Shown here: positions 10,191 to 53,307 of the stretch, in pieces | Numbering within the stretch: the stretch's first letter is position 1 | Layout: the number at the start of each line of letters is the position of its first letter | Notes under the pieces: model-generated | What the model saw: the letters and a program-made list of their open reading frames with translations, nothing else | What the model was told of the DNA's origin: nothing | Databases searched by the model: none | Assembly: GCA_030390025.1 (NCBI GenBank) | Contig: CM059427.1 | Span: forward strand, 186,558,001 to 186,622,000 | DNA from: Squalus acanthias | Taxonomy: Eukaryota | Reading direction: 5' to 3' | Length of the DNA: 64,000 bases | Made by a program: the position numbers and the translations under genes

Positions 10191-10974
10191 GTAAGTGTCT
10201 CAGGTTTTGCTCTTTTAACCTCCATAGAAAGTTCTTGTCACTCACTGCTCTTTTATTATGATAACCTCTTACTTTTCAGATCCTATTGCACTCCACATTA
10301 CTCAGAGTTCAGTCATAGGTGTTCACATATAAACAATTTAACATCAAAAATCAAACTATACAATCAAAGCAATAGAGAGGAGCTAAAGTGGGATTTTTAT
10401 TTTAATATATCTTTGGGGTCCATTACACTCCTGTAAGGAGTCTTTTAAATGTTAAATCCCCTCCTGCCCACTGTAATAAGACTAGATGCCAGTAACAGAA
10501 TGGTTTTCCTTGCATCCAGTGTTGCTCCTCTTTTCATCAAACCTATTAAGTTAAAGGGCCGTCGAAATCAAATTAAAATTTACTGCAGGTTGACATCTTT
10601 TGTCAACCATTGACTTAAAGGACCTTCAAATTAAGAGAATCAAATTAAAATTTTGTCGGCCCGCGAGATGATGCACTCCAGTCCCCGCGACGCCCACCTG
10701 TCCCGGAAGGCCACGAGCTTGCGGACACTGCGTGCTCCATCTCCAGGGCCACCTGGCCGCGGAAGAGAGGCAGGCAATCGGCCCGGACGACCCCCTCGAC
10801 CGCCCGCTGCCTGGACCTATTAATGGCCACTTTGGCCAGGGCATCCAGTGTTGCTATGGTGGGTAATGATGGAAATTGTGACACATTATGTCACTCTGTC
10901 CCTGCTACTCATTTGGATATGAACCACACTTGACCAATGTCACTTCTGGATCAAAATCCTGGAAGTGGCGGTAA

Positions 10975-12168
10975 TTGGCCGGGGAATGATTGGCCAGGAA
11001 TGATTGGCCTTGGAATGATTGGCCAGGGAATGATTGGCCTTGGAATGATTGGCCAGGAATGATTGGCCTTGGAATGATTGGCCAGGAATGATTGGCCGGG
11101 AATGATTGGCCTTGGAATGATTGGCCAGGAATGATTGGCCGGGAATGATTGGCCTTGGAATGATTGGCCAGGAATGATTGGCCGGGAATGATTGGCCTTG
11201 GAATGATTGGCCGGGAATGATTCGCCGGGAATGATTGGCCTTGGAATGATTGGCCGGGAATGATTGGCCTTGGAATGATTGGCCTTGGAATGATTCGCCG
11301 GGAATGATTGGCCTTGGAATGATTGGCCAGGAATGATTGGCCTTGGAATGATTGGCCGGGAATGATTGGCCGGGAATGATTGGCCTTGGAATGATTGGCC
11401 AGGAATGATTGGCCGGGAATGATTGGCCTTGGAATGATTGGCCTTGGAATGATTCGCCGGGAATGATTGGCCTTGGAATGATTGGCCAGGGAATGATTGG
11501 CCTTGGAATGATTGGCCGGGAATGATTGGCCTTGGAATGATTGGCCAGGGAATGATTGGCCTTGGAATGATTGGCCGGGAATGATTGGCCTTGGAATGAT
11601 TGGCCGGGAATGATTGGCCTTGCAATGATTGGCCGGGAATGATTGGCCGGGGAATGATTGGCCTTGCAATGATTGGCCGGGAATGATTGGCCGGGAATGA
11701 TTGGCCTTGGAATGATTCGCCGGGAATGATTGGCCTTGGAATGATTGGCCGGGAATGATTGGCCGGGGAATGATTGGCCTTGCAATGATTGGCCGGGAAT
11801 GATTGGCCGGGGAATGATTGGCCAGGGAATGATTGGCCTTGGAATGATTGGCCTTTAAATGATTGGCCGGGGAATGATTGGCCTTTAAATGATTGGCCGG
11901 GGAATGATTGGCCTTGGAATGATTGGCCGGGGAATGATTGGTCGGGGAATGATTGGCCTTGGAATGATTGGCCTTGGAATGATTGGCCGGGGAATGATTG
12001 GTCGGGGAATGATTGGCCGGGGAATGATTGGTCGGGGAATGATTGGCTGGGGAATGATTGGCCTTGGAATGATTGGCCGGGGAATGATTGGTCGGGGAAT
12101 GATTGGCCGGGGAATGATTGGTCGGGGAATGATTGGTCGGGGAATGATTGGTCGGGGAATGATTGGCC
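10975..12168. repeat. Minisatellite of 14-15-bp units, core GGAATGATTGGCC, about 80 copies
   Basis: Seen directly; explains the repetitive ORFs at 10905-12446. Confidence 0.97.
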
Positions 12169-12733
12169 GTCTCGCTGACATATTGCCCCAAATCCATGCG
12201 AAATCGGATTGGGAAGGGAGCAGAAATAACTTGCTTGCTATTTACTCTTACAATGTTAACTTTATTGCTCTGGAGGCTACAGCTCCAGGTTTCTTGTTTT
12301 GGAGTAAATTTGCCTCTGAATTGCTCCCAGCAATAGACTGGGGAATCTGAGTGCACAGGACTCTGACACTCAGGGCTGGATTGTTCCAACCTCGGTGGGT
12401 CTGCGGCGTGTGGGGACCTCGCATCTGTCTCGATCCCGGCCTCCAACTAGATTTTACGTTGATTGGGCTTCTTAAGCCCGCCCTGCGATGTTCCCGGCCA
12501 ATTAATAGGAAGCAGGTCTGATGATGCCATTTGATGATGCATCATCAGCTGATTTCCTTAAAGGGGCCATGTCCAAAATGATTTTGACAATTCTGCTGTC
12601 AGTGTTCTACAGCATTGAGGTGCTGCAAACACTGCACAAAGGTGCACAGCTGCACCCAGGCTTTCCCATGACTCCCTCCATATGCTTATGCAGGGAGACA
12701 CAGCATGCAGGGAGGTTCTCTTCCCTTCCCATG

Positions 12734-12864
12734 TAACTCTACCTGACGAAGGGGCAACAGCTCCGAAAGCTTGTAATTTTAAATAAATCTGTTGGACTAT
12801 AACCTGGTGTTGTGCGACTTCTCATTTTTGTCCAGCCCAGTCCAACACCGGCATCTCCGCATCA
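12734..12864 (+). mobile_element. 131-bp Penelope pLTR 3' fragment with hammerhead motif
   Basis: 9-bp TSD CTTCCCATG (12725-12733 / 12865-12873); matches pLTR ends at 37893 and 51327. Confidence 0.85.
12740..12775 (+). ncRNA. Minimal hammerhead ribozyme motif
   Basis: TAC-CTGACGA-A-GGGGC/GCTCC-GAAA-GCT-T-GTA. Confidence 0.7.
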
Positions 12865-35269: not shown

Positions 35270-36890
35270 AGCAGCAGAGGCAGCTGAATGTATGGTCACA
35301 ATTTTATTGACAAAGAATTCCATGAGCTCATCGCACTTTTTGTTGGAGGTGAGGGTGGAGGGGGCAGGGGAGAGGGGTTTAAGAAGATGGTTTGTCGTGG
35401 AGAAGAGAAGCCAGGGGTTATCTTTGTATTCTGTGATGATCCTGGAATAGTGAGCAGTTTTGGCAGTGGACCTGATCGTGCTTTATGTGGTCCAGCCACA
35501 TCTGGCCATGAATGGCTAAACCAGTTGTCCACCATAAATGTTCAAGTCTGCGTCCATTGGACTTAAGGGAATGGAAATGAGGGCCGTACTAGGGGGAATG
35601 ACCAGAGTGAGAGAGCGTAATGGATTAATGGGGACAAGGGCGTCAAAAGTGGAGGTGAGGGTGTGATTATGCAGAAATGTCATGGTGAATGAAGGATAAA
35701 AGCTAGACTGTTGGGAATTTGAAAATGCCATTGTAAATGACTTGGGAAGAGTTTTTCCAGGGTCGGACACAGAAGGAAGTGGGATTGGGACGGGGAAGGG
35801 GGATGTGAGTGGAGATGGATACAAGGAAGTGGTCAGAGATGGCCTTATCTGTGATTGACACAAGGGAATAGAGAGACCACATGAGATGGCAAGGTGAAGG
35901 GGGTGGCCGTTAATATGGGTAGGGGAGTTTATATGGAAGGAGAGATTAAGGGAGAATAGGAGGACAGTGAACTCAGAGGAGAGAGGGCATGGTGAGTTGA
36001 GATGGAGGTTGAAATCATTGAGGATGAGAAGTCGCTTGGTGCAGATGCTGAATGAAGAAATCAGTGAAGATATATTGGTCAGAAACTTGGCATGGTACTT
36101 GGGTAGGCGGTAGCGAACAAGGATTTAAATGAGAGGCAAGAAGGGTGGGACAAGGTGAAATGCTCAAAGAAGGAAAAGGTGCCAGAGGAGTAGGGAGACA
36201 GACCAAGGTGTGATTTGATATTAGGGCCACACCAGCACCGCGGTGGTTCGGGCGGGGCAAGTGGTGGAAGGTATAGCAAGGTGGGGAGGTTTCAGTAAGA
36301 GGGAAGATACCATCACCTGTCAGCCAAGTTTCTGTCAAGGCCATGATGTCGATGCAATCAGCCATAATAAGCTCATGGATGACAAGGGCCTTGTTCACAA
36401 GTGAACAGAATTCTAGAGGGAGATGCAGAGAGGGGCGGTGATAGCTGATCCACTGGCAGAGTCCGCAGGGTTAGTGCTGGGAGTGAATGGGGCGGAAAGG
36501 AGGTAGGAAGGATTAGCCCCTAGTGGGCGAGCTGGTCAAAAAGGTCAGTGAGAGAGTAGGATGGGGCATTTGGGTTTGCTGCTCAGAAGGAGGCCATGAC
36601 GAGTGCCTCGATGGGCCCTTTGGAGGATGGAAAAAGAGGCACAGAGGGGAGCTGTAGGCTTATCTAAGAGGGAGTCAAATCTGGGATGGTGGCAGGAGAG
36701 TCGGAAGGTCGAGGAGTGCTAAAGGCTTAGGGTACAGATTTTCGGGGCAGAGTGCCCGAGAGGGGAGTAATGAAAGGAGGCGTGACAACAGTAGAGAGGG
36801 GCCTATGAGGGTTAATAAGAAAAGGAGAAAAAAGGAAATAGGAGTGATGGTTTGGGTCCGGAGTGGCAGCCAAAACGTGCACTATTTTGG
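35270..36890 (-). mobile_element. L2 LINE 5' part (endonuclease region), preceded by a short + strand CR1 fragment at 35087-35265
   Basis: NKALVIHELI...IDIMALTETWL...RGAGVA apurinic endonuclease motifs (ORF 36015-36398). Confidence 0.8.
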
Positions 36891-37980
36891 TAAACAACTT
36901 GTCCTTGAATACACAGGTTGCGGTTATAACTTTTGAGCAGTTCCATTTATCTCGTCAGAAGTGAACACTTTGGATGGGGCTGGATTTCAATCCCTGAATG
37001 TCTTCACCAGAACATTTTAGGACTAGCCCAACACAGAGCGGTACTAAGTTGACGTTAACTTTTCTCAAATTGGGTGCCTTTGGATTGACCTTCGGGCCAT
37101 TTTTACAAGTTAATGAAGCCATTCGAAGATATGAGCAGACATCCCTTTACCTGCATTATCTGAGTGACTCCAGGTGTGAGTGCAAACTTAACATGGCAGC
37201 TCCTAGATGAAGGACAATGACTCACTAAAAATACCTCATCAATCTTCATTTTGTGTTTTTGATTTCTGTTTTTAAATGTTAGCTATCAGAGTTTGTATTT
37301 TGTACTGAAACTACTCTCCCTGTGTTTCTTTCTCCTATAATGGTGAGCACTGGTAACGTGGAAAGGCTTCATATTTTGTGAGCTGTTCCAATCTTCCAAG
37401 GATTGACGAGGCAATGCAGAACTAGAGTGGCAGCGCAAAGCTCTTGCCATTTTAAAAACTCAGTTTGGTCGCCGTCAACCAATTCTTGTATTGCAGCTTT
37501 CACTATTTTCTATTCCTCAGATTTTTTTTTTCTAAACTTCAAGAATGAGCAGCAAGAATCTGGAATTGACACTGAATATTCCTTATAGTCGTTGGTCTAC
37601 ACGCTGGCCGGGTCATTGCAACATAGCTACAATAACAATGAGGAAACTTCTTCACTGCCCACTTCCTCCTTTAGGTTAACAGGAACTGACAGTTTGAAAG
37701 CAGGAATTAACTTTTCAAGTTGCCAAAGATGGAAGCAAGTGATAGATGCCCACCCCCAGCACCAACGGCCACTTCTATTTCTATACCGCCTTCAATATAG
37801 AAAAACAAGGCGTTTCACAGGGGAATAATGGTCCAAGTATACGCTGAACTAAAGCAGGAGATATTTGGAGGGCTGTCCACAATCTTGATCAAGATGCGGA
37901 GATGCCGGTGTTGGACTGGGGTGGACAAAAATGAGAAGTCGCACAACACCAGGTTATAGTCCAACAGTTTTATTTAAAAT

Positions 37981-38015
37981 TACGAGCTTTCGGAGCGCTG
38001 CTCCTTCTTCAGGTA
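37981..38015 (-). ncRNA. Minimal hammerhead ribozyme motif
   Basis: Reverse complement TAC-CTGAAGA-A-GGAGC/GCTCC-GAAA-GCT-C-GTA. Confidence 0.75.
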
Positions 38016-38129
38016 CAAGTACAGTGAGGGAATCTATTACACAGTATAAAAACACAGCAATCAAGGGTTTCTGCAGACCTTTGATTTCTGTGTATATATA
38101 CTGTGTAATAGATTCCCTCACTGTACTTG

Positions 38130-38164
38130 TACCTGAAGAAGGAGCAGCGCTCCGAAAGCTCGTA
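38130..38164 (+). ncRNA. Minimal hammerhead ribozyme motif
   Basis: TAC-CTGAAGA-A-GGAGC/GCTCC-GAAA-GCT-C-GTA. Confidence 0.75.
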
Positions 38165-38214
38165 ATTTTAAATAAAACTGTTGGACTATAACCTGGTGTT
38201 GTGCGACTTCTCAT

Positions 38215-39530
38215 CAAAATCTTGATGAAAGAGGTGGGTGGGTTTAGGAAGGGAATTCCGGAGCATGGGGCCGAGTCAGCTCAAGGTCCAGCTGGCAATG
38301 GTGGGGGGAAAGAAGGGAAGCTGGTGCACAAGAGGCTGGATCAGAGGAATGGAGAGTTCGGTGGGGGTGGGGTGGGGTTGGAGCACTTGAGGAAGCTACA
38401 GAGATAGGAAAGGAGAGACTGTGAAGAGATTTAAACATCAGGGTGAGAATTTTAAATTGGAGGTGTTGAGCCACTGAGGACAGGGGTGATAAGTGAGCAG
38501 GACTTGGTGTAGGAAAGGATATGGGCAGCAGAGTTTTGGATAGAGGGTCGAGGCCTTGCATTTATATAGCACCGTTAATGTAGGAAAACATCCCAAGGTG
38601 CTTCACAGGAGCTTAATCAGCTGAAGGAGGAGATATTAGCAGGGTGCTTAAAAGCTTGGTCAAAATGTTAGGTTTTAAGGAGGGTCTTAAAGGAGGAGAG
38701 AGAGGTGCAAAGAGGTTTAGGGGGGGACTTCCAGAGCTTAGGGCCCAGATGACTGAAGGCACAGTCGCCAATGGTGGGGTGAAGGGAGTGGCGGATGCTC
38801 AAGAGGCCAGAATTGAAGCTGCGCAGATTTCTCAGAGGGTTGCAGGGCTGGAGGAGGTTACAGAGATAGAGAGGAGCAAGGCAATGGAGGGATTTGAATG
38901 CAAGGCGTTAGTGAACAAGGAACCAATGTAGGTCAGCAAACACAGGAGTGATGGGTGAGCGGACTTGGTACAGGTTAGGATAGGGGCAGTGGAGTTTTGG
39001 ATGACCTCAAATTTATATAGGGTGGAAGATGAGAGACGGGTCAGAAGAGTGTTGGAATAGTCAACTCCTGAGGTAACAAAAGCATCGATGAATATTTCAG
39101 CAGCGGAGATGGGTGATGTTCCAGAGGAAGACGGTCTTTGTTATAGAGAGGATAGACGGTTCGAAGCTCAGTCCAAGGTCAAATAGGATGCTTAGTTTGC
39201 ACACCGACTGCTTGAACTTAAGACTGTTTCGGGGAGGTGGATGGAATGGTGGCGAGGGAGCGGAGTTTGTGGTGGGAGCTAAAGGCAGTCGCTTTGGTCT
39301 TCCCAATGTTTAATTGGAGAGAATTCTGGCTCATCCAAGACCGGATGTCGGACAAGCAGTCAGACAACACAGAGGCAGTGGAGGGATTGAGAGAGATGGT
39401 GGTGAAGTAGAGCTATGTGTCGTCAGCAGACATGTGCAATCTGACATCATGTCTTCGGATAATGTCGCCGAGCAGCAGCATGTAGATGAGAAACAGGAAG
39501 GGGCCAAGAATAGATCCCCGTGGAACTGTA
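38215..39530 (-). mobile_element. Two tandem degenerate L2 3' fragments
   Basis: FKILTLMFKSLH-type C-terminus; second tail starts ~38556. Confidence 0.7.
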
Positions 39531-41399
39531 GAGATAATGTTGCATAGTGAGATACCTGGACAAAGGGTGGCTCTATTAGAAGGATCGAGACACCCAAGGG
39601 CAACCTTTTAATTTTAATGTTAGGCCTCCCCTGTTTCCAATGGAGAACTGCTCCAGGGCTTTGGCCTAATTTAAATAATAAGTGAGATCTTAAAGAGCCT
39701 TGCACACAGTCAGTTCACAGGCTTCTAGTGCGCTAAGTTCTGTCTGTCTTCATTTCCATTGGAATAGGTGCACATTAGGGCCTGATCTCCATCTCCAATT
39801 ATACCTGGTGCTGGTGACATTTTTAATTCTCAGGATGTGGGCGTCGCTGGCAAGGCCGGCATTTATTGCCCATCCCTAGTTGCCTTTAACTGAGTGACAT
39901 GCTAGGCCACTTCACAGGGCAGTTAAGAGTCAACCACGTTGACTTCTAAAGCACTACAGAGTCATGGACTGCATTATGCACCCATAATGCTTTTGTAACC
40001 CAAACACTAAACAGAAAAACAATTGAAACCTCAGGATTTTACATTCAGTCATGGTCAAATTCCACGAGAATTTTTTTATGAAGCTGTCGTGGTTACTGTC
40101 CTGAGTACACTCATATATAGTGTTAATATTTTCACAGCTAAAATTTGCATCAGAAACAAGACTTAGTGGTTTACGAGAAAACAAACTGTCGTGTTTTTTT
40201 GGACAGCTGAAAACACAAAATCTGTCGATGTGAGTCAGCAACAGGATCTGACTCAATATTGGCTTGTTTTGTGGTTAACCACACGGAGCTAAGATACTCA
40301 TTTGACGGTTTCCACAGAGCCGTAGTGAAAACACAGCCTAGAAACTCGTTAAGCCGTTTATATTGTGGTAAATGGGCGCAGATGAATAATCCCAGTGCCC
40401 GAAGACGTTGGTCCGAGGATCGCAAGAAATTGGTCCTCGGGCCTCATCTCAGTATTCAGGGCAGCTGTCAACACCTCTCGCACCTCCACAGGTAGCTCGC
40501 CCGAGGGGGGCCGTTTGCGGCCGATACTGGTTATTGGAAGCACTGTGGAGCCGTGAGGAGCACTCCTGCTCCTCCTGACTCCACAGAAATTTAAAAATTA
40601 ATCTTTCACTTACCTTTTCGGTGGCGGCCGTTGGTTAGGCCGCATCTATGTCCCAAAAACCTGAACCGTGCAGGCCCAAGGCCTGCTCTGCTCAAGGCAA
40701 CCTAATTTCTTGTAAGGTTCCTTAAACAGGCATTAGGCCCACCCATTGGCATATGAAAAGGGGTTTAATGCCTATTTTAGGCAGCCGTGTCGTCTAGACC
40801 CAATTTCCGGTCAGGCTTTTTTCAGGCATTCTTGGGGCACAGAGTGTTGCGCACAAATTGGTCCTTTTTGCACCTGTTTTATGCCTGAATTTCTTTTTTT
40901 AGTTTTGAACCCACATCAGCTTGTTCTGTATTATTTGCATATTGGGTTACTCCTCATAGAGAAATGAAGCTCCATGGTTGATGGCATCGTTTTAATGCCC
41001 TGCGCAAAAACACCATACAAGTTGGAGCTAAACTCCTTCATGCTCTCTGCCATTGTGTGCAGGCTCATTGGAAGGCAGCCCAGTGCACTTAGAGGGTCCT
41101 GGGTGTCTATCCGTCAGTCTTCTTTTAAAGGCTGGGCTCTCAAAGTCTTCACCTGTGCCCTCTGCAGTAGGACGAGGATACGAGCTCTCCCTCCAGCGAG
41201 CTGCTTCGCCGGCCATCCTATTCCCCTGACCTTGCTCCTGGGCTCCAGTGCTTGCTGTATCTCGCAGTTAAGACAACTCTAAGACAACCTTCTGAACGAT
41301 GCGGTGTGCCAATCTCTGAGCTGATGCCTTTAAGGGTAAGGTTGATATCCCCTTCATCTTCATTTGCGCTGCCCTCTTCATGCTCTGCTCTCTCAGACA

Positions 41400-46539: not shown

Positions 46540-48156
46540 TACTCGGAATATTGTCCCTTGGAATCAGGCTCATATCCATGGGTGAAAATGAGTTCGAGCA
46601 AGACTTCTTCGCTGCACAGGACCTCCAGCCAACGCTGTACACCAGATACATCGACGACATTTTCTTCCTTTGGACCCATGGCGAAGGATCACTGAAAAGA
46701 CTACACGATAACATAAACAAGTTCCATCCCACCATCAAACTCACCATGGACTACTCCTCAGAATCGGTTTCATTCCTGGACACACGAATCTCCATCAAAG
46801 ACGGACACCTCAGCACTTCACTCTACCGCAAGCCCACGGACAACCTCACGATGCTCCACTTCTCCAGCTTCCACCCTAACCATGTTAAAGAAGCCATCCC
46901 CTATGGACAAGCCCTGCGAATACACAGGATCTGCTCAGACGAGGAGGAACGGGATGGACACCTACGGACGCTGAAAAACGCCCTCGTAAGAACGGGATAT
47001 GACGATCGACTCATCGATCGACAGTTCCGACGGGCCACAGCGAAAAATCGCATAGGCCTCCTCAGAAGGCAAACACGGGACACAACCAACAGGGTACCCT
47101 ATGTCGTCCAGTACTTCCCCGGAGCGGAGAAACTACGCCATTTTCTTCGCAGCCTTCAACATGTCATCGATGACGACAAACACCTCGCTAAGGCCATCCC
47201 CACGCCTCCACTACTTGCCTTCAAACAGCCACCTAACCTCAGAAGTACCATCGTTCGCAGCAAATTACCCAGCTTTCAGGATAACAGCGACCACGACACC
47301 ACACAACCCTGCCACGGCAAACTCTGCAAGACATGCCAGATCATCAACACAGATACCACCATCACACGTGAGGACACTACCCACCAGGTACATGGTACAT
47401 ACTCATGTGACTCGGCCAACGTTGTCTACCTCATACGTTGCAGGAAAGAATGCACCGCGGCATGGTACATCGGCGAGACCATGCAGACACTGAGACAACG
47501 TATGAACGAGCACCGCTCAACAATCACCAGGCAGGATTGTTACCTCCCAGTCGGGGAACACTTCAGCAGTCAAGGACATTCAGCCTCGGATCTGCGGGTA
47601 AGCGTTCTCCAAGGCAACCTTAGGAACACACGACAACGCATAATCATCGAGCAGAAACTGATAGCCAAGTTCCGCACTCATGAAGACAGTCTCAACCGGG
47701 ATCTTGGGTTTATGTCACGATACATGACGTGATCCGGACTCGAGTCGTCGTTGGCTTGTTCACAGATGTGATTCCCAGTAAAAAAGTAAAAATTTTCCCA
47801 GTAAAAAAGTAAAAATTTTACAGCTTATCGTTTTACATACAGACGGCAGCTTTTGACTCGTTAGACCCCCTGCGACTCCACCTCATTGTCTCAGTTGTAT
47901 CTTGCTATGACTTTGATGTGGTACCTTCCTGGCTGACCTGATTAACTTTATCACACCTCGGCAGATAGTCAGGATGATTTAATTTAGTTGTCTGCAATTG
48001 TAAGGTACACATGCATTGTTCTCTATCTATATATGCTTTGTCGAGTCTGTATTTCTTTACTTCACCTGAGGAAGGGGCGATCGATAGCTCCGAAAGCTTT
48101 GATTTCAAATAAAACTGTTGGACTATAACCTGGTGTTGTGCGACCTCTCAATTTTG
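46540..48156 (+). mobile_element. 5'-truncated Penelope-like retroelement (RT C-terminal part + GIY-YIG endonuclease, then pLTR)
   Basis: 393-aa ORF 46551-47732: YTRYIDDIF, LYRKPT, NVVYLIRC...WYIGET...RMNEHR; pLTR with hammerhead at 48062-48102. Confidence 0.93.
48062..48102 (+). ncRNA. Hammerhead ribozyme motif (helix I weakened)
   Basis: TCAC-CTGAGGA-A-GGGGC/GCTCC-GAAA-GCT-T-TGA. Confidence 0.6.
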
Positions 48157-51104: not shown

Positions 51105-51409
51105 TAGTCCTAGTCTACTCAATCTCTCCTCATTGGACAATCCCCCTATCCCAGGAACCAGTCTGGTGAACTTTCGTTGCACTCCCTCTAAGGCAAGTAT
51201 ATCCTTCCTTAAGTCAGGAGACCAAAACTGTACACAATACTCCAGTTGTGTTCTCACCAGGGCCCTATTTAATTGCAGTAAGACGTCTTTACTCTTATAC
51301 TCAAATTCTCTTGTAATAAACATGATGTGTAATGCCGGTGTTGGACTGGGGTGGACAAAAGTGAGAAGTCGCACAACACCAGGTTATAGTCCAACAGTTT
51401 TATTTGAAA

Positions 51410-51447
51410 TCACAAGCTTTCGGAGCGGCTGCTCCTTCGTCAGGTGA
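51410..51447 (-). ncRNA. Minimal hammerhead ribozyme motif
   Basis: Reverse complement TCAC-CTGACGA-A-GGAGC/GCTCC-GAAA-GCT-T-GTGA. Confidence 0.75.
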
Positions 51448-53163
51448 AGTGAAGAAATACAAATTGGCACAGCATATATAGACAGAGAACAATGCCTGTG
51501 CAGAGAACAATGCCAGACGACTGCAGTTAATCTTTCTGACTGCCTTTTATCACACCTCGGCAGAGAGACAATCAGGTCAGTCAGGAAGACATTATATCAA
51601 AGACATAGCAAAATACAACTAAGACAATGAGGTGGGGTCACAGGGGGTCTAATGTATCAGATGCTGCAGTCTGTATGGAAAACCAAAAACTTTAAACTTT
51701 TTTTTACTTTTTTTACTGGAAGTCACATCTGTTAACAAGACAACGACAACTCGAGTCTGGATGACTCTACGTCAGGTGGGGTTACATGTAGTGTGACATG
51801 AACCAAAGATCCCGGTTGAGGCCGTCCTCATGGGATGGAACTTGGCTATCAGTTTCTGCTCGATGATTGTGCGTTGTCGTGTGTCTCGAAGGCCGCCTTG
51901 GAGAACGCTTACCCGAAGATCCGAGGCTGAATGTCCTTGACTGCTGAACTGTTCCCCAACTGAGAGGTAACATTCCTGCCTGGCGATTGTTGCGCGGTGT
52001 CCGTTCATACGTTGTCGCAGTGTCTGCATGGTCTCGCCGAAGTACCATGCTCCGGGGCATCCTTTCCTGTAACGTATGAGGTAGACAACGTTGGCCGAGT
52101 CACATGAGTATGTACCATGTACCTAGTGGGTAGTGACCTCACGTGTGATGATGGTATCTGTGTTGATGATCTGGCATGTCTTGCAGAGGTTGCCGTGGCA
52201 GGGTTGTGTGGTGTCGTGGTCGCTGTTCTCCTGAAAGCTGGGTAATTTGCTGCGAACGATGGTACTTTTGAGGTTAGGCGGCTGTTTGAAGGCGAGTAGT
52301 GGAGGCGTGGGGATGGCCTTAGCGAGGTGTTCGTCCTCATCTATGACATGTTGAAGGCTGCGAAGAAAATGGCGTAGTTTCTCCGCTCCAGGGAAGTACT
52401 GGACAACGTAGGGTACTCTGTTGGTTGTGTCCCGTGTTCGCCTTCTGAGGAGGTCTATGCGATTTTTCGCTGTGGCCCGTCGGAACTGTCGATCGACGAG
52501 TCGAGCGTCATATCCCTTTCTTATGAGGGCGTCTTTCAGCGTCCGTAGGTGTCCATCGCGTTCCTCCTCGTCTGAGCAGATCCTGTGTATTCGCAGGGCT
52601 TGTCCATAGGGGATGGCTTCTTTAACGTGGTTACGGTGGAAGCTGGAGAAGTGGAGAATCGTGAGGTTGTCCATGGGCTTGCGGTAGAGTGAAGTGCTGA
52701 GGTGTCTGTCTTTGATGGAGATTCATGTGTCCAAGAATGAAACCGATTCATCGATCAGAAACTGATAGCCAAGTTCTGCACCCATGAGGACGGCCTCAAC
52801 CGGGATCTTGGGTTCATGTCACGCTACATGTAACCCCACCTGACGTAGAGTCATCCAGACTCGAGTCGTCATTGATTGTTCACAGATGTGATTTCCAGTA
52901 AAAAAAGTAAAAAGTTTAAAGATTCTGGTTTTCCATACAGACTGCAGCATCTGACACAGTAGACCCCCTGTGACCCCACCTCATTGTCTCAGTTGTATCT
53001 TGCTATGTCTTTGATATAATGTCTTCCTGACTGACCTGGTTGTCTCTCTGCCGAGGTGTGATTAAAGGCAATCAGAAAGATTAACTGTAGTCGTCTGACA
53101 TTGTTCTCTGCACAGGCATTGTTCTCTGTCTATATATGCTGTGCCGATTTGTATTTCTTCACT

Positions 53164-53201
53164 TCACCTGACGAAGGAGCAGCCGCTCCGAAAGCTTGTG
53201 A
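53164..53201 (+). ncRNA. Minimal hammerhead ribozyme motif
   Basis: TCAC-CTGACGA-A-GGAGC/GCTCC-GAAA-GCT-T-GTGA. Confidence 0.75.
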
Positions 53202-53307
53202 TTTCAAATAAAACTGTTGAACTATAACCTGGTGTTGTGCAACTTCTCCCTCTTGTAATAAAGGCCAACATACCATTTGCTTTCCTAATTGCTTGCTGTA
53301 CCTGCAT

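Follow-up and report, generated by a model that had tools for sequence, protein, structure and literature searches.

The closest described counterparts of the insertion studied here are the EN+ PLE insertions Pen2a/Pen2 of Adineta vaga, which combine a head-to-head, inverted and 5'-truncated pLTR with a one-sided tail of 30-40 bp and a TSD (PMC3846280; PMC8557442, Fig. 2). The TSD of Pen2a is 9 bp, and an overlap or a palindrome lies at the inverted junction (PMC3846280). A second point of reference is PAc, a Poseidon element of Anolis, for which cutting and extension of both strands have been obtained in vitro, with reverse transcription starting at two sites that bracket the tail; the protein is predicted to dimerise, and inverted arms are not modelled in the part of the paper cited here (PMC11167929). 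Pairs of minimal hammerheads on opposite strands, 100-700 bp apart, occur in PLE remnants, those of Schistosoma included (PMC4209133). Finally, non-LTR retrozymes are non-coding, PLE-derived and equipped with a type I hammerhead (bioRxiv 10.64898/2026.07.22.740005). A search of freely readable main texts found no paper that sets out dual priming as the origin of PLE inversions, a proposal that may nonetheless have been published.

We analysed a stretch of 64,000 nt from the genome of Squalus acanthias (the window, to whose first letter all coordinates refer) that contains a small insertion of this kind. Like Pen2a/Pen2, it has a head-to-head, truncated and inverted pLTR, a tail on one side only (38 nt), an overlapping palindrome at the junction and a TSD whose core is 9 bp. 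Unlike them, it retains no ORF, both of its arms are shorter than 190 nt, and five changes lie on one side of the turn. It shares with the dual hammerheads of PMC4209133 the motif and the arrangement, and with non-LTR retrozymes the traits named above; it differs from the latter in being inverted rather than tandem, single-copy, not amplified as a unit and provided with one sense ribozyme per strand. The layout as such has thus been published already (PMC3846280, PMC8557442). What we add is a count of arms from two subfamilies inside single TSDs and a one-sided scar at the junction.

The whole insertion measures 322 nt (37893-38214). Its tailed pLTR arm (37931-38048, minus strand) and its tail-less arm (38097-38214, plus strand) are exact reverse complements of 118 bp each, separated by a centre of 48 nt, as the original prediction had it. 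The tail-less arm ends at the second fixed end of the PLE family; loose ends of contigs lie at 38213. Only the left arm carries the 38-nt PLE tail (37893-37930, minus strand), again in agreement with what had been claimed, and in full-length copies this tail leads directly into the first ATG of the ORF. For all 322 nt taken together, folding gives -243.3 kcal/mol (z = -34.5), a value equalled by none of 100 shuffles.

The centre consists of three parts. At 38070-38077 lies the turning point, the 8-nt self-complementary TCTGCAGA, which is native to the parent element and common to both arms as an 8-nt overlap. The inner end of the tail-less arm (38078-38096, plus strand) is parent sequence without changes. 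In contrast, the inner end of the tailed arm (38049-38069, minus strand) departs from the parent by four substitutions (38049, 38051, 38058 and 38065) and a 2-nt insertion, and is unique in the genome. The changes adjacent to TCTGCAGA form a one-sided scar, confined to the tailed arm. In RNA of the plus strand, with G-U pairs included, the centre prolongs the stem imperfectly to a 4-nt loop, just as had been predicted; in RNA of the minus strand it closes in an 8-nt loop.

An imperfect TSD had been proposed for the locus, and the flanking repeat is indeed present, identical at 13 of 15 positions. Contigs of the empty site refined it to an exact core of 9 bp (37881-37889 and 38218-38226, both plus strand) with three extra bases, CAA, beside the core on each side (37890-37892 and 38215-38217). 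These are either junction filler or the mismatched outer part of a longer TSD, which would reach 12-15 bp if one or two mismatches were allowed. Read as 9 bp with fillers, the TSD is shorter than the family mode of 12. The target region (37700-39500) is presumably a decayed minus-strand LINE, to judge by L2/CR1-type RT-end peptides in its translation. Small inverted repeats are formed with the TSD at both junctions, a 14-nt palindrome at 37884-37897 and a 6-bp stem with a 4-nt loop at 38211-38229. Either may be due to chance; on their account, the fillers may have been templated from the target ends.

Two contigs bridge the flanks without the insertion, one from run X11 (organism D, depth 37) and one from run X6 (organism B, depth 2.9). 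In runs X1 and X3, both from one sample of organism A, a flank contig matches up to 37889 and then continues with 43 other letters, resembling an empty allele, the joint being absent among the matches listed. Given the identical arms and the empty alleles, we infer that the insertion is young and probably polymorphic. The standard ends and the TSD argue against a read chimera, which would be expected to fold back through the flank.

The element that gave rise to the insertion is abundant in this genome of 3.7 Gb: a piece of 84 nt spanning hammerhead and tail has 1042 exact copies. One unit is about 3.0 kb long. The parent ORF has at least 819 open codons and encodes a reverse transcriptase (Pfam PF00078) with the motif YIDD, followed by a linker of the form C-X4-C-X2-C and then by a motif of GIY-YIG type whose halves enclose two cysteines; the latter motif was assigned by motif match, the region having no Pfam match to GIY-YIG. 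The same order of parts is described for Neptune and Nematis PLEs, which have in common a CX2-5CxxC linker and are marked by this linker together with a GIY-YIG endonuclease at the C-terminal end (PMC8557442). Going by a host context of vertebrate type, we would assign the parent to the Neptune type rather than to Nematis. As in PAc, two fixed ends bracket the tail and the pLTR hammerhead stands just before the ORF. In PAc, however, helix II contains the start of the ORF, and about 110 nt of the ORF precede the tail (PMC11167929), whereas here the first ATG directly follows the tail.

Among 14 loci fetched for the 5' part of the element, three (L157, L160 and L161) have a direct upstream pLTR that runs into the ORF, its tail reaching the first ATG, and so represent partial tandems. 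The near full-length copy L160 (219-2675, minus strand) provides the 819 open codons, and the pLTR upstream of it comes from a subfamily further removed (77-88% identity to reference copies). L160 and L161 are 99.9% identical, lie on small contigs and are perhaps a single locus assembled twice. An open frame of 1160 codons in L042 was considered as the parent ORF and rejected, since it is a tandem repeat. The window itself holds four further remnants of the family (12732-12863, 48055-48156, 51323-51492 and 53166-53256). It also contains two long inverted pairs of 87-94% identity (46761-48156 with 51356-52749, and 51355-51866 with 52748-53256) and, at 10974-12169, about 1.2 kb of tandemly arrayed repeats. 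The general identification of the locus as a Penelope retro-insertion with inverted pLTR, tail, TSD and minimal hammerheads has thus held up.

Its central hairpin has a different origin from the one first envisaged. The original prediction saw in it a native imperfect hairpin of the pLTR at which the cDNA had stopped, and named the absence of that hairpin from the parent as evidence against itself; the parent pLTR is indeed without it. Parent sequence of a small subfamily makes up the right half of the centre, with six exact matches over 34 nt (this locus included) and ten to a looser pattern. Among ten closest-subfamily loci compared, nine have ordinary pLTR sequence upstream of this half and one is cut short at that point; the hairpin's other half was found in none of the ten, nor in any of a set of 29 relatives, all of which align only from TCTGCAGA or later and continue upstream as ordinary pLTR sequence or flank. 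Folded as DNA, the centre reaches -10 to -11 kcal/mol, the native region only about -2 to -3 kcal/mol. The left half repeats the right half in inverted form and departs from it, within 21 nt, by the four substitutions and the 2-nt insertion. No genomic source of these 21 nt was found at two mismatches in 32 nt or at one mismatch in 22 nt, and they share no word of 10 nt or more with a natural long copy or with the flanks of the locus.

These data also bear on the notion that the locus is a tiny mobile unit resembling a retrozyme. A genome-wide search for copies with the same fold-back centre had been suggested; the centre proved to be single-copy, and the sister stubs described below have no common centre. 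Retrozymes, moreover, need direct tandem repeats with at least two hammerheads on the same strand (bioRxiv 10.64898/2026.07.22.740005), and no cleavage in vitro was seen for a minimal hammerhead on its own (PMC4209133). What speaks for such a unit are the intact hammerhead cores and a pair of TATA-like and initiator-like words in the right arm. We consider this reading, together with that of a native hairpin in the parent, largely refuted and its remaining probability very small.

Each arm does contain one hammerhead core, as had been noted, and thus each strand one. Both are minimal type I hammerheads in the sense of PMC4209133. That on the minus strand (37981-38015) has a helix I of 3 bp, a helix II of 5 bp and the palindromic AGCU in place of helix III, with C3 at 38012 and a predicted cut after 37984; that on the plus strand (38130-38164) has C3 at 38133 and a predicted cut after 38161. 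The core boxes, the extra base after A9, G10.1-C11.1 and the palindromic 15.2-16.2 agree with the published description, while helix I in the subfamily of the locus, with only 3 bp, falls below the 4-5 bp given there (PMC4209133); the commonest sister haplotype has 4 bp. An Rfam scan of positions 36000-40000 at E<=5 returned no hammerhead match and only two chance matches to lncRNAs.

The unit is head-to-head, and each strand therefore reads its antisense arm first. Any read-through RNA would in consequence bury its one sense hammerhead, and the ribozyme is predicted to be locked in the 118-bp duplex; that the sense ribozyme is single and preceded on both strands by perfect antisense also weighs against the retrozyme-like unit originally imagined. 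The right arm retains a TATA-like word (38093-38100) and an initiator-like word (38118-38122), both on the plus strand ahead of the hammerhead and putatively a promoter, so that an outward transcript lacking the antisense arm might be made. In the tailed arm the TATA-like word is disrupted. The same two words have been noted in the pLTR of Adineta Pen2a (PMC3846280). If transcribed, the locus could, like any such stub, be a source of dsRNA or siRNA.

How ordinary the locus is becomes apparent from its family. Within 1.5 kb upstream of 30 consecutive copies on chromosome 1, an inverted pLTR end was present in 20, and in none of the 20 did it carry the tail. An inverted tail-less copy, a tailed copy and a TSD are therefore the commonest layout of this PLE family. 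A pattern search for head-to-head hammerheads 100-200 nt apart returned 131 loci, of which 50 were listed and 49 others than our locus fetched for the comparison of stubs; L079, L094 and L106 were excluded from the comparisons of arms, their arms being too short or interrupted. With six of the 50 loci skipped, a TSD of 11-14 bp (mode 12) was scored in 32 of 44 stubs. Our locus is thus one of hundreds of dead stubs, real and ordinary in kind.

Sister stubs turn at many different places. Of the 30 consecutive copies on chromosome 1 (L107-L136), 14, all among the 20 with an inverted pLTR end, are ultrashort palindromes of 173-227 bp whose turn coincides with the hammerhead core or lies just upstream of it, and all 14 have a TSD of 11-13 bp. 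Many of these turn at the 4-nt palindrome GTAC beside helix I, and the position of the turn may mark the 5' end of a short RNA driven by the pLTR. At our locus the turn lies 65 nt upstream of C3 of the hammerhead and hence outside this hot spot. A second hot spot falls on the (TA)n run within the TATA-like word, at which L059, L062, L088, L091 and L103 turn as perfect or near-perfect palindromes with a spacer of 0-2 nt. The same layout occurs at large size in L039 (4247-6922), where an inverted pair of element 3' ends extends over 2.7 kb, about 7 nt apart, and adjoins a third copy of 1.9 kb. Other sequence interrupts one arm just downstream of the hammerhead in L074, L086, L088 and L092; a GC-rich insert is common to L074, L092 and L143. 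The flanks of L108 and L115 share with each other, about 1.1-1.4 kb downstream, one end of a GC-rich repeat in opposite orientations.

We propose that the locus is a young, truncated insertion of a Neptune-type PLE in which two separately primed cDNAs were joined at the native palindrome TCTGCAGA, a reading to which we assign a probability of about 0.6. The endonuclease of the element would have made a staggered cut, to judge from the TSD; two-strand cutting has been demonstrated in vitro for another PLE, PAc (PMC11167929). Each 3' end would then have served as primer for a cDNA on element RNA, with synthesis starting at the tail site for the left end and, 38 nt upstream, at the tail-less site for the right end. 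Both cDNAs would have stopped after about 145-185 nt with 3' ends that read TCTGCAGA and, as the 8-nt overlap suggests, annealed by 8 bp. Fill-in and ligation would have yielded the palindrome. The last 21 nt of the tailed cDNA would hold errors, and these would not have passed to the opposite side, since the template of the second arm was RNA rather than the tailed cDNA. The product is presumably a dead stub, without ORF and single-copy. Judged by its sequence, TCTGCAGA is better suited to a meeting of two molecules, which could pair over 8 bp, than to a turn within one, where the stem would be 2 bp.

This scheme resembles twin priming of LINE-1, in which both target strands prime cDNA and the inversion is joined at microhomology. 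In twin priming, however, each of the two cDNAs has its own part of one RNA as template, without overlap, whereas here both copy the same stretch, sometimes from two source copies.

Arm lengths in the sister stubs speak for two primings. Of the 24 stubs with a spacer of at least 11 nt, 14 have as spacer the parent sequence of the tail-less arm and 4 that of the tailed arm, the other 6 being ambiguous; at the extreme, L032 has a tail-less arm of about 1.46 kb and a tailed arm of 124 bp. Since a fold-back copy cannot exceed its template, longer tail-less arms argue against folding back of a tailed cDNA. Haplotypes point in the same direction. Different common subfamily haplotypes were found in the two arms of 5 of 13 evaluable ultrashort stubs (L109, L111, L113, L116 and L135), each within one TSD of 11-13 bp. 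Likewise, the arms differ at two or more diagnostic sites in 6 of 46 longer stubs (L068, L077, L084, L088, L089 and L100); L068, L077 and L084 have clean 12-bp TSDs, and L088, L089 and L100 were skipped in the TSD count or are without a clean one. Together, the arms from two subfamilies and the longer tail-less arms suggest that two primed cDNAs were likely joined at microhomology. The two templates may have been two different pLTRs of one tandem transcript, as the foreign-subfamily pLTR upstream in L160 would allow. Discordant arms could also result from later gene conversion.

Most arms, on the other hand, are concordant: 34/43 at loop II, 33/40 at a second site, 36/39 at stem I and 42/44 at a fourth, with random mean concordance of 8.8 at loop II and 5.8 at stem I. 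Fold-back predicts concordance, as do two readings of a single RNA and a cell in which few sources are active. Together with the identical outer 118 bp at our locus, it counts against the two-cDNA model insofar as fold-back explains these observations too. The model is further weakened by the origin of the in vitro data, a Poseidon-clade element and not the Squalus acanthias family, and by a locus TSD that falls short of the family mode.

In a fold-back scheme that follows the originally predicted route but dispenses with the native hairpin, a single tailed cDNA turned at TCTGCAGA into a perfect palindrome, and error-prone repair at the tip of the hairpin or cruciform later altered its centre. 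Repair at the centre is known for perfect palindromes, and the identical outer arms agree with this scheme. Self-priming has, in addition, been inferred from palindromic junctions in Adineta (PMC3846280). Yet it fails to explain why, in almost all loci, the copy ends no more than a few bases from the boundary of the tail, why tail-less arms exceed tailed ones and why one TSD encloses arms of two subfamilies; moreover, L062, L075 and L091 have remained perfect to the tip. Direct self-copying of the tailed cDNA, as in the original prediction, would have put the changes into both arms, and they are seen in the tailed arm only. We think a single fold-back with subsequent repair improbable.

The scar itself is not peculiar to the locus. 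Across 40 other stubs the arms differ at 53 of 2455 positions, a rate at which, by our arithmetic, four or more differences in 22 nt would arise with a chance near 0.002. Five of the 40 (L058, L067, L092, L093 and L103) show at least three differences within 22 nt of the junction, and the error scar thus recurs. The mean gradient towards the junction is weak, at 0.030 differences per base over the inner 10 nt and about 0.02 at greater distance, which counts against the two-cDNA model. These five stubs lend some weight to a hybrid of the two schemes, in which the two priming events on RNA are retained and the turn is intramolecular: the tail-less cDNA would snap back at TCTGCAGA and copy its first 21 nt sloppily, and the resulting sense strand would anneal to a second, tail-primed cDNA. 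The errors fall where extension from the 2-bp stem would begin, and the hybrid accounts both for identical outer arms and for the longer tail-less arm in 14/24 stubs. It requires, however, priming from a stem of 2 bp, and in the five error-rich stubs the changed arm varies by eye. We regard it as unlikely.

There is finally the question of whether the five changes beside the turn are sequencing or consensus errors at a hairpin tip within a real insertion. None of the contigs from five runs (X1, X3, X5, X6 and X11) covers the centre or either insertion junction, a gap that by itself proves nothing; because none of these read sets contains the insertion, the altered 21 nt may be a consensus error. 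The left flank differs from run X1 at 3 of 290 bases, which makes local accuracy of the assembly uncertain. Against this, the same assembly holds several stubs that are perfect to the tip, L062, L075 and L091 among them, and so does not routinely miscall hairpins. A consensus error would, moreover, alter only the joining step, and the parent would still be without the hairpin. On balance, we consider it highly unlikely.

Extended to the family, our reading is that inverted Penelope insertions arise by dual target-primed reverse transcription, in which both strands of one staggered cut prime, one at the tail and one at the tail-less start, often on two RNAs, and in which joining at short palindromes is error-prone. 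Stubs of mixed haplotype in one 12-bp TSD would then be direct genomic proof against the self-priming model, and our locus would keep a scar of the joining; we hold this general scheme to be about an even bet.

The locus itself matters little, the family somewhat more. On how PLEs make their inverted ends, the published texts cited here offer a proposal of self-priming (PMC3846280) and in vitro evidence for two start sites, one way or the other engaging both strands (PMC11167929). With more than a thousand young copies, the genome of Squalus acanthias permits a count that separates the models. In contrast to the interpretation of such junctions in PMC3846280, the first count, and with it the family data, favours two primed cDNAs.
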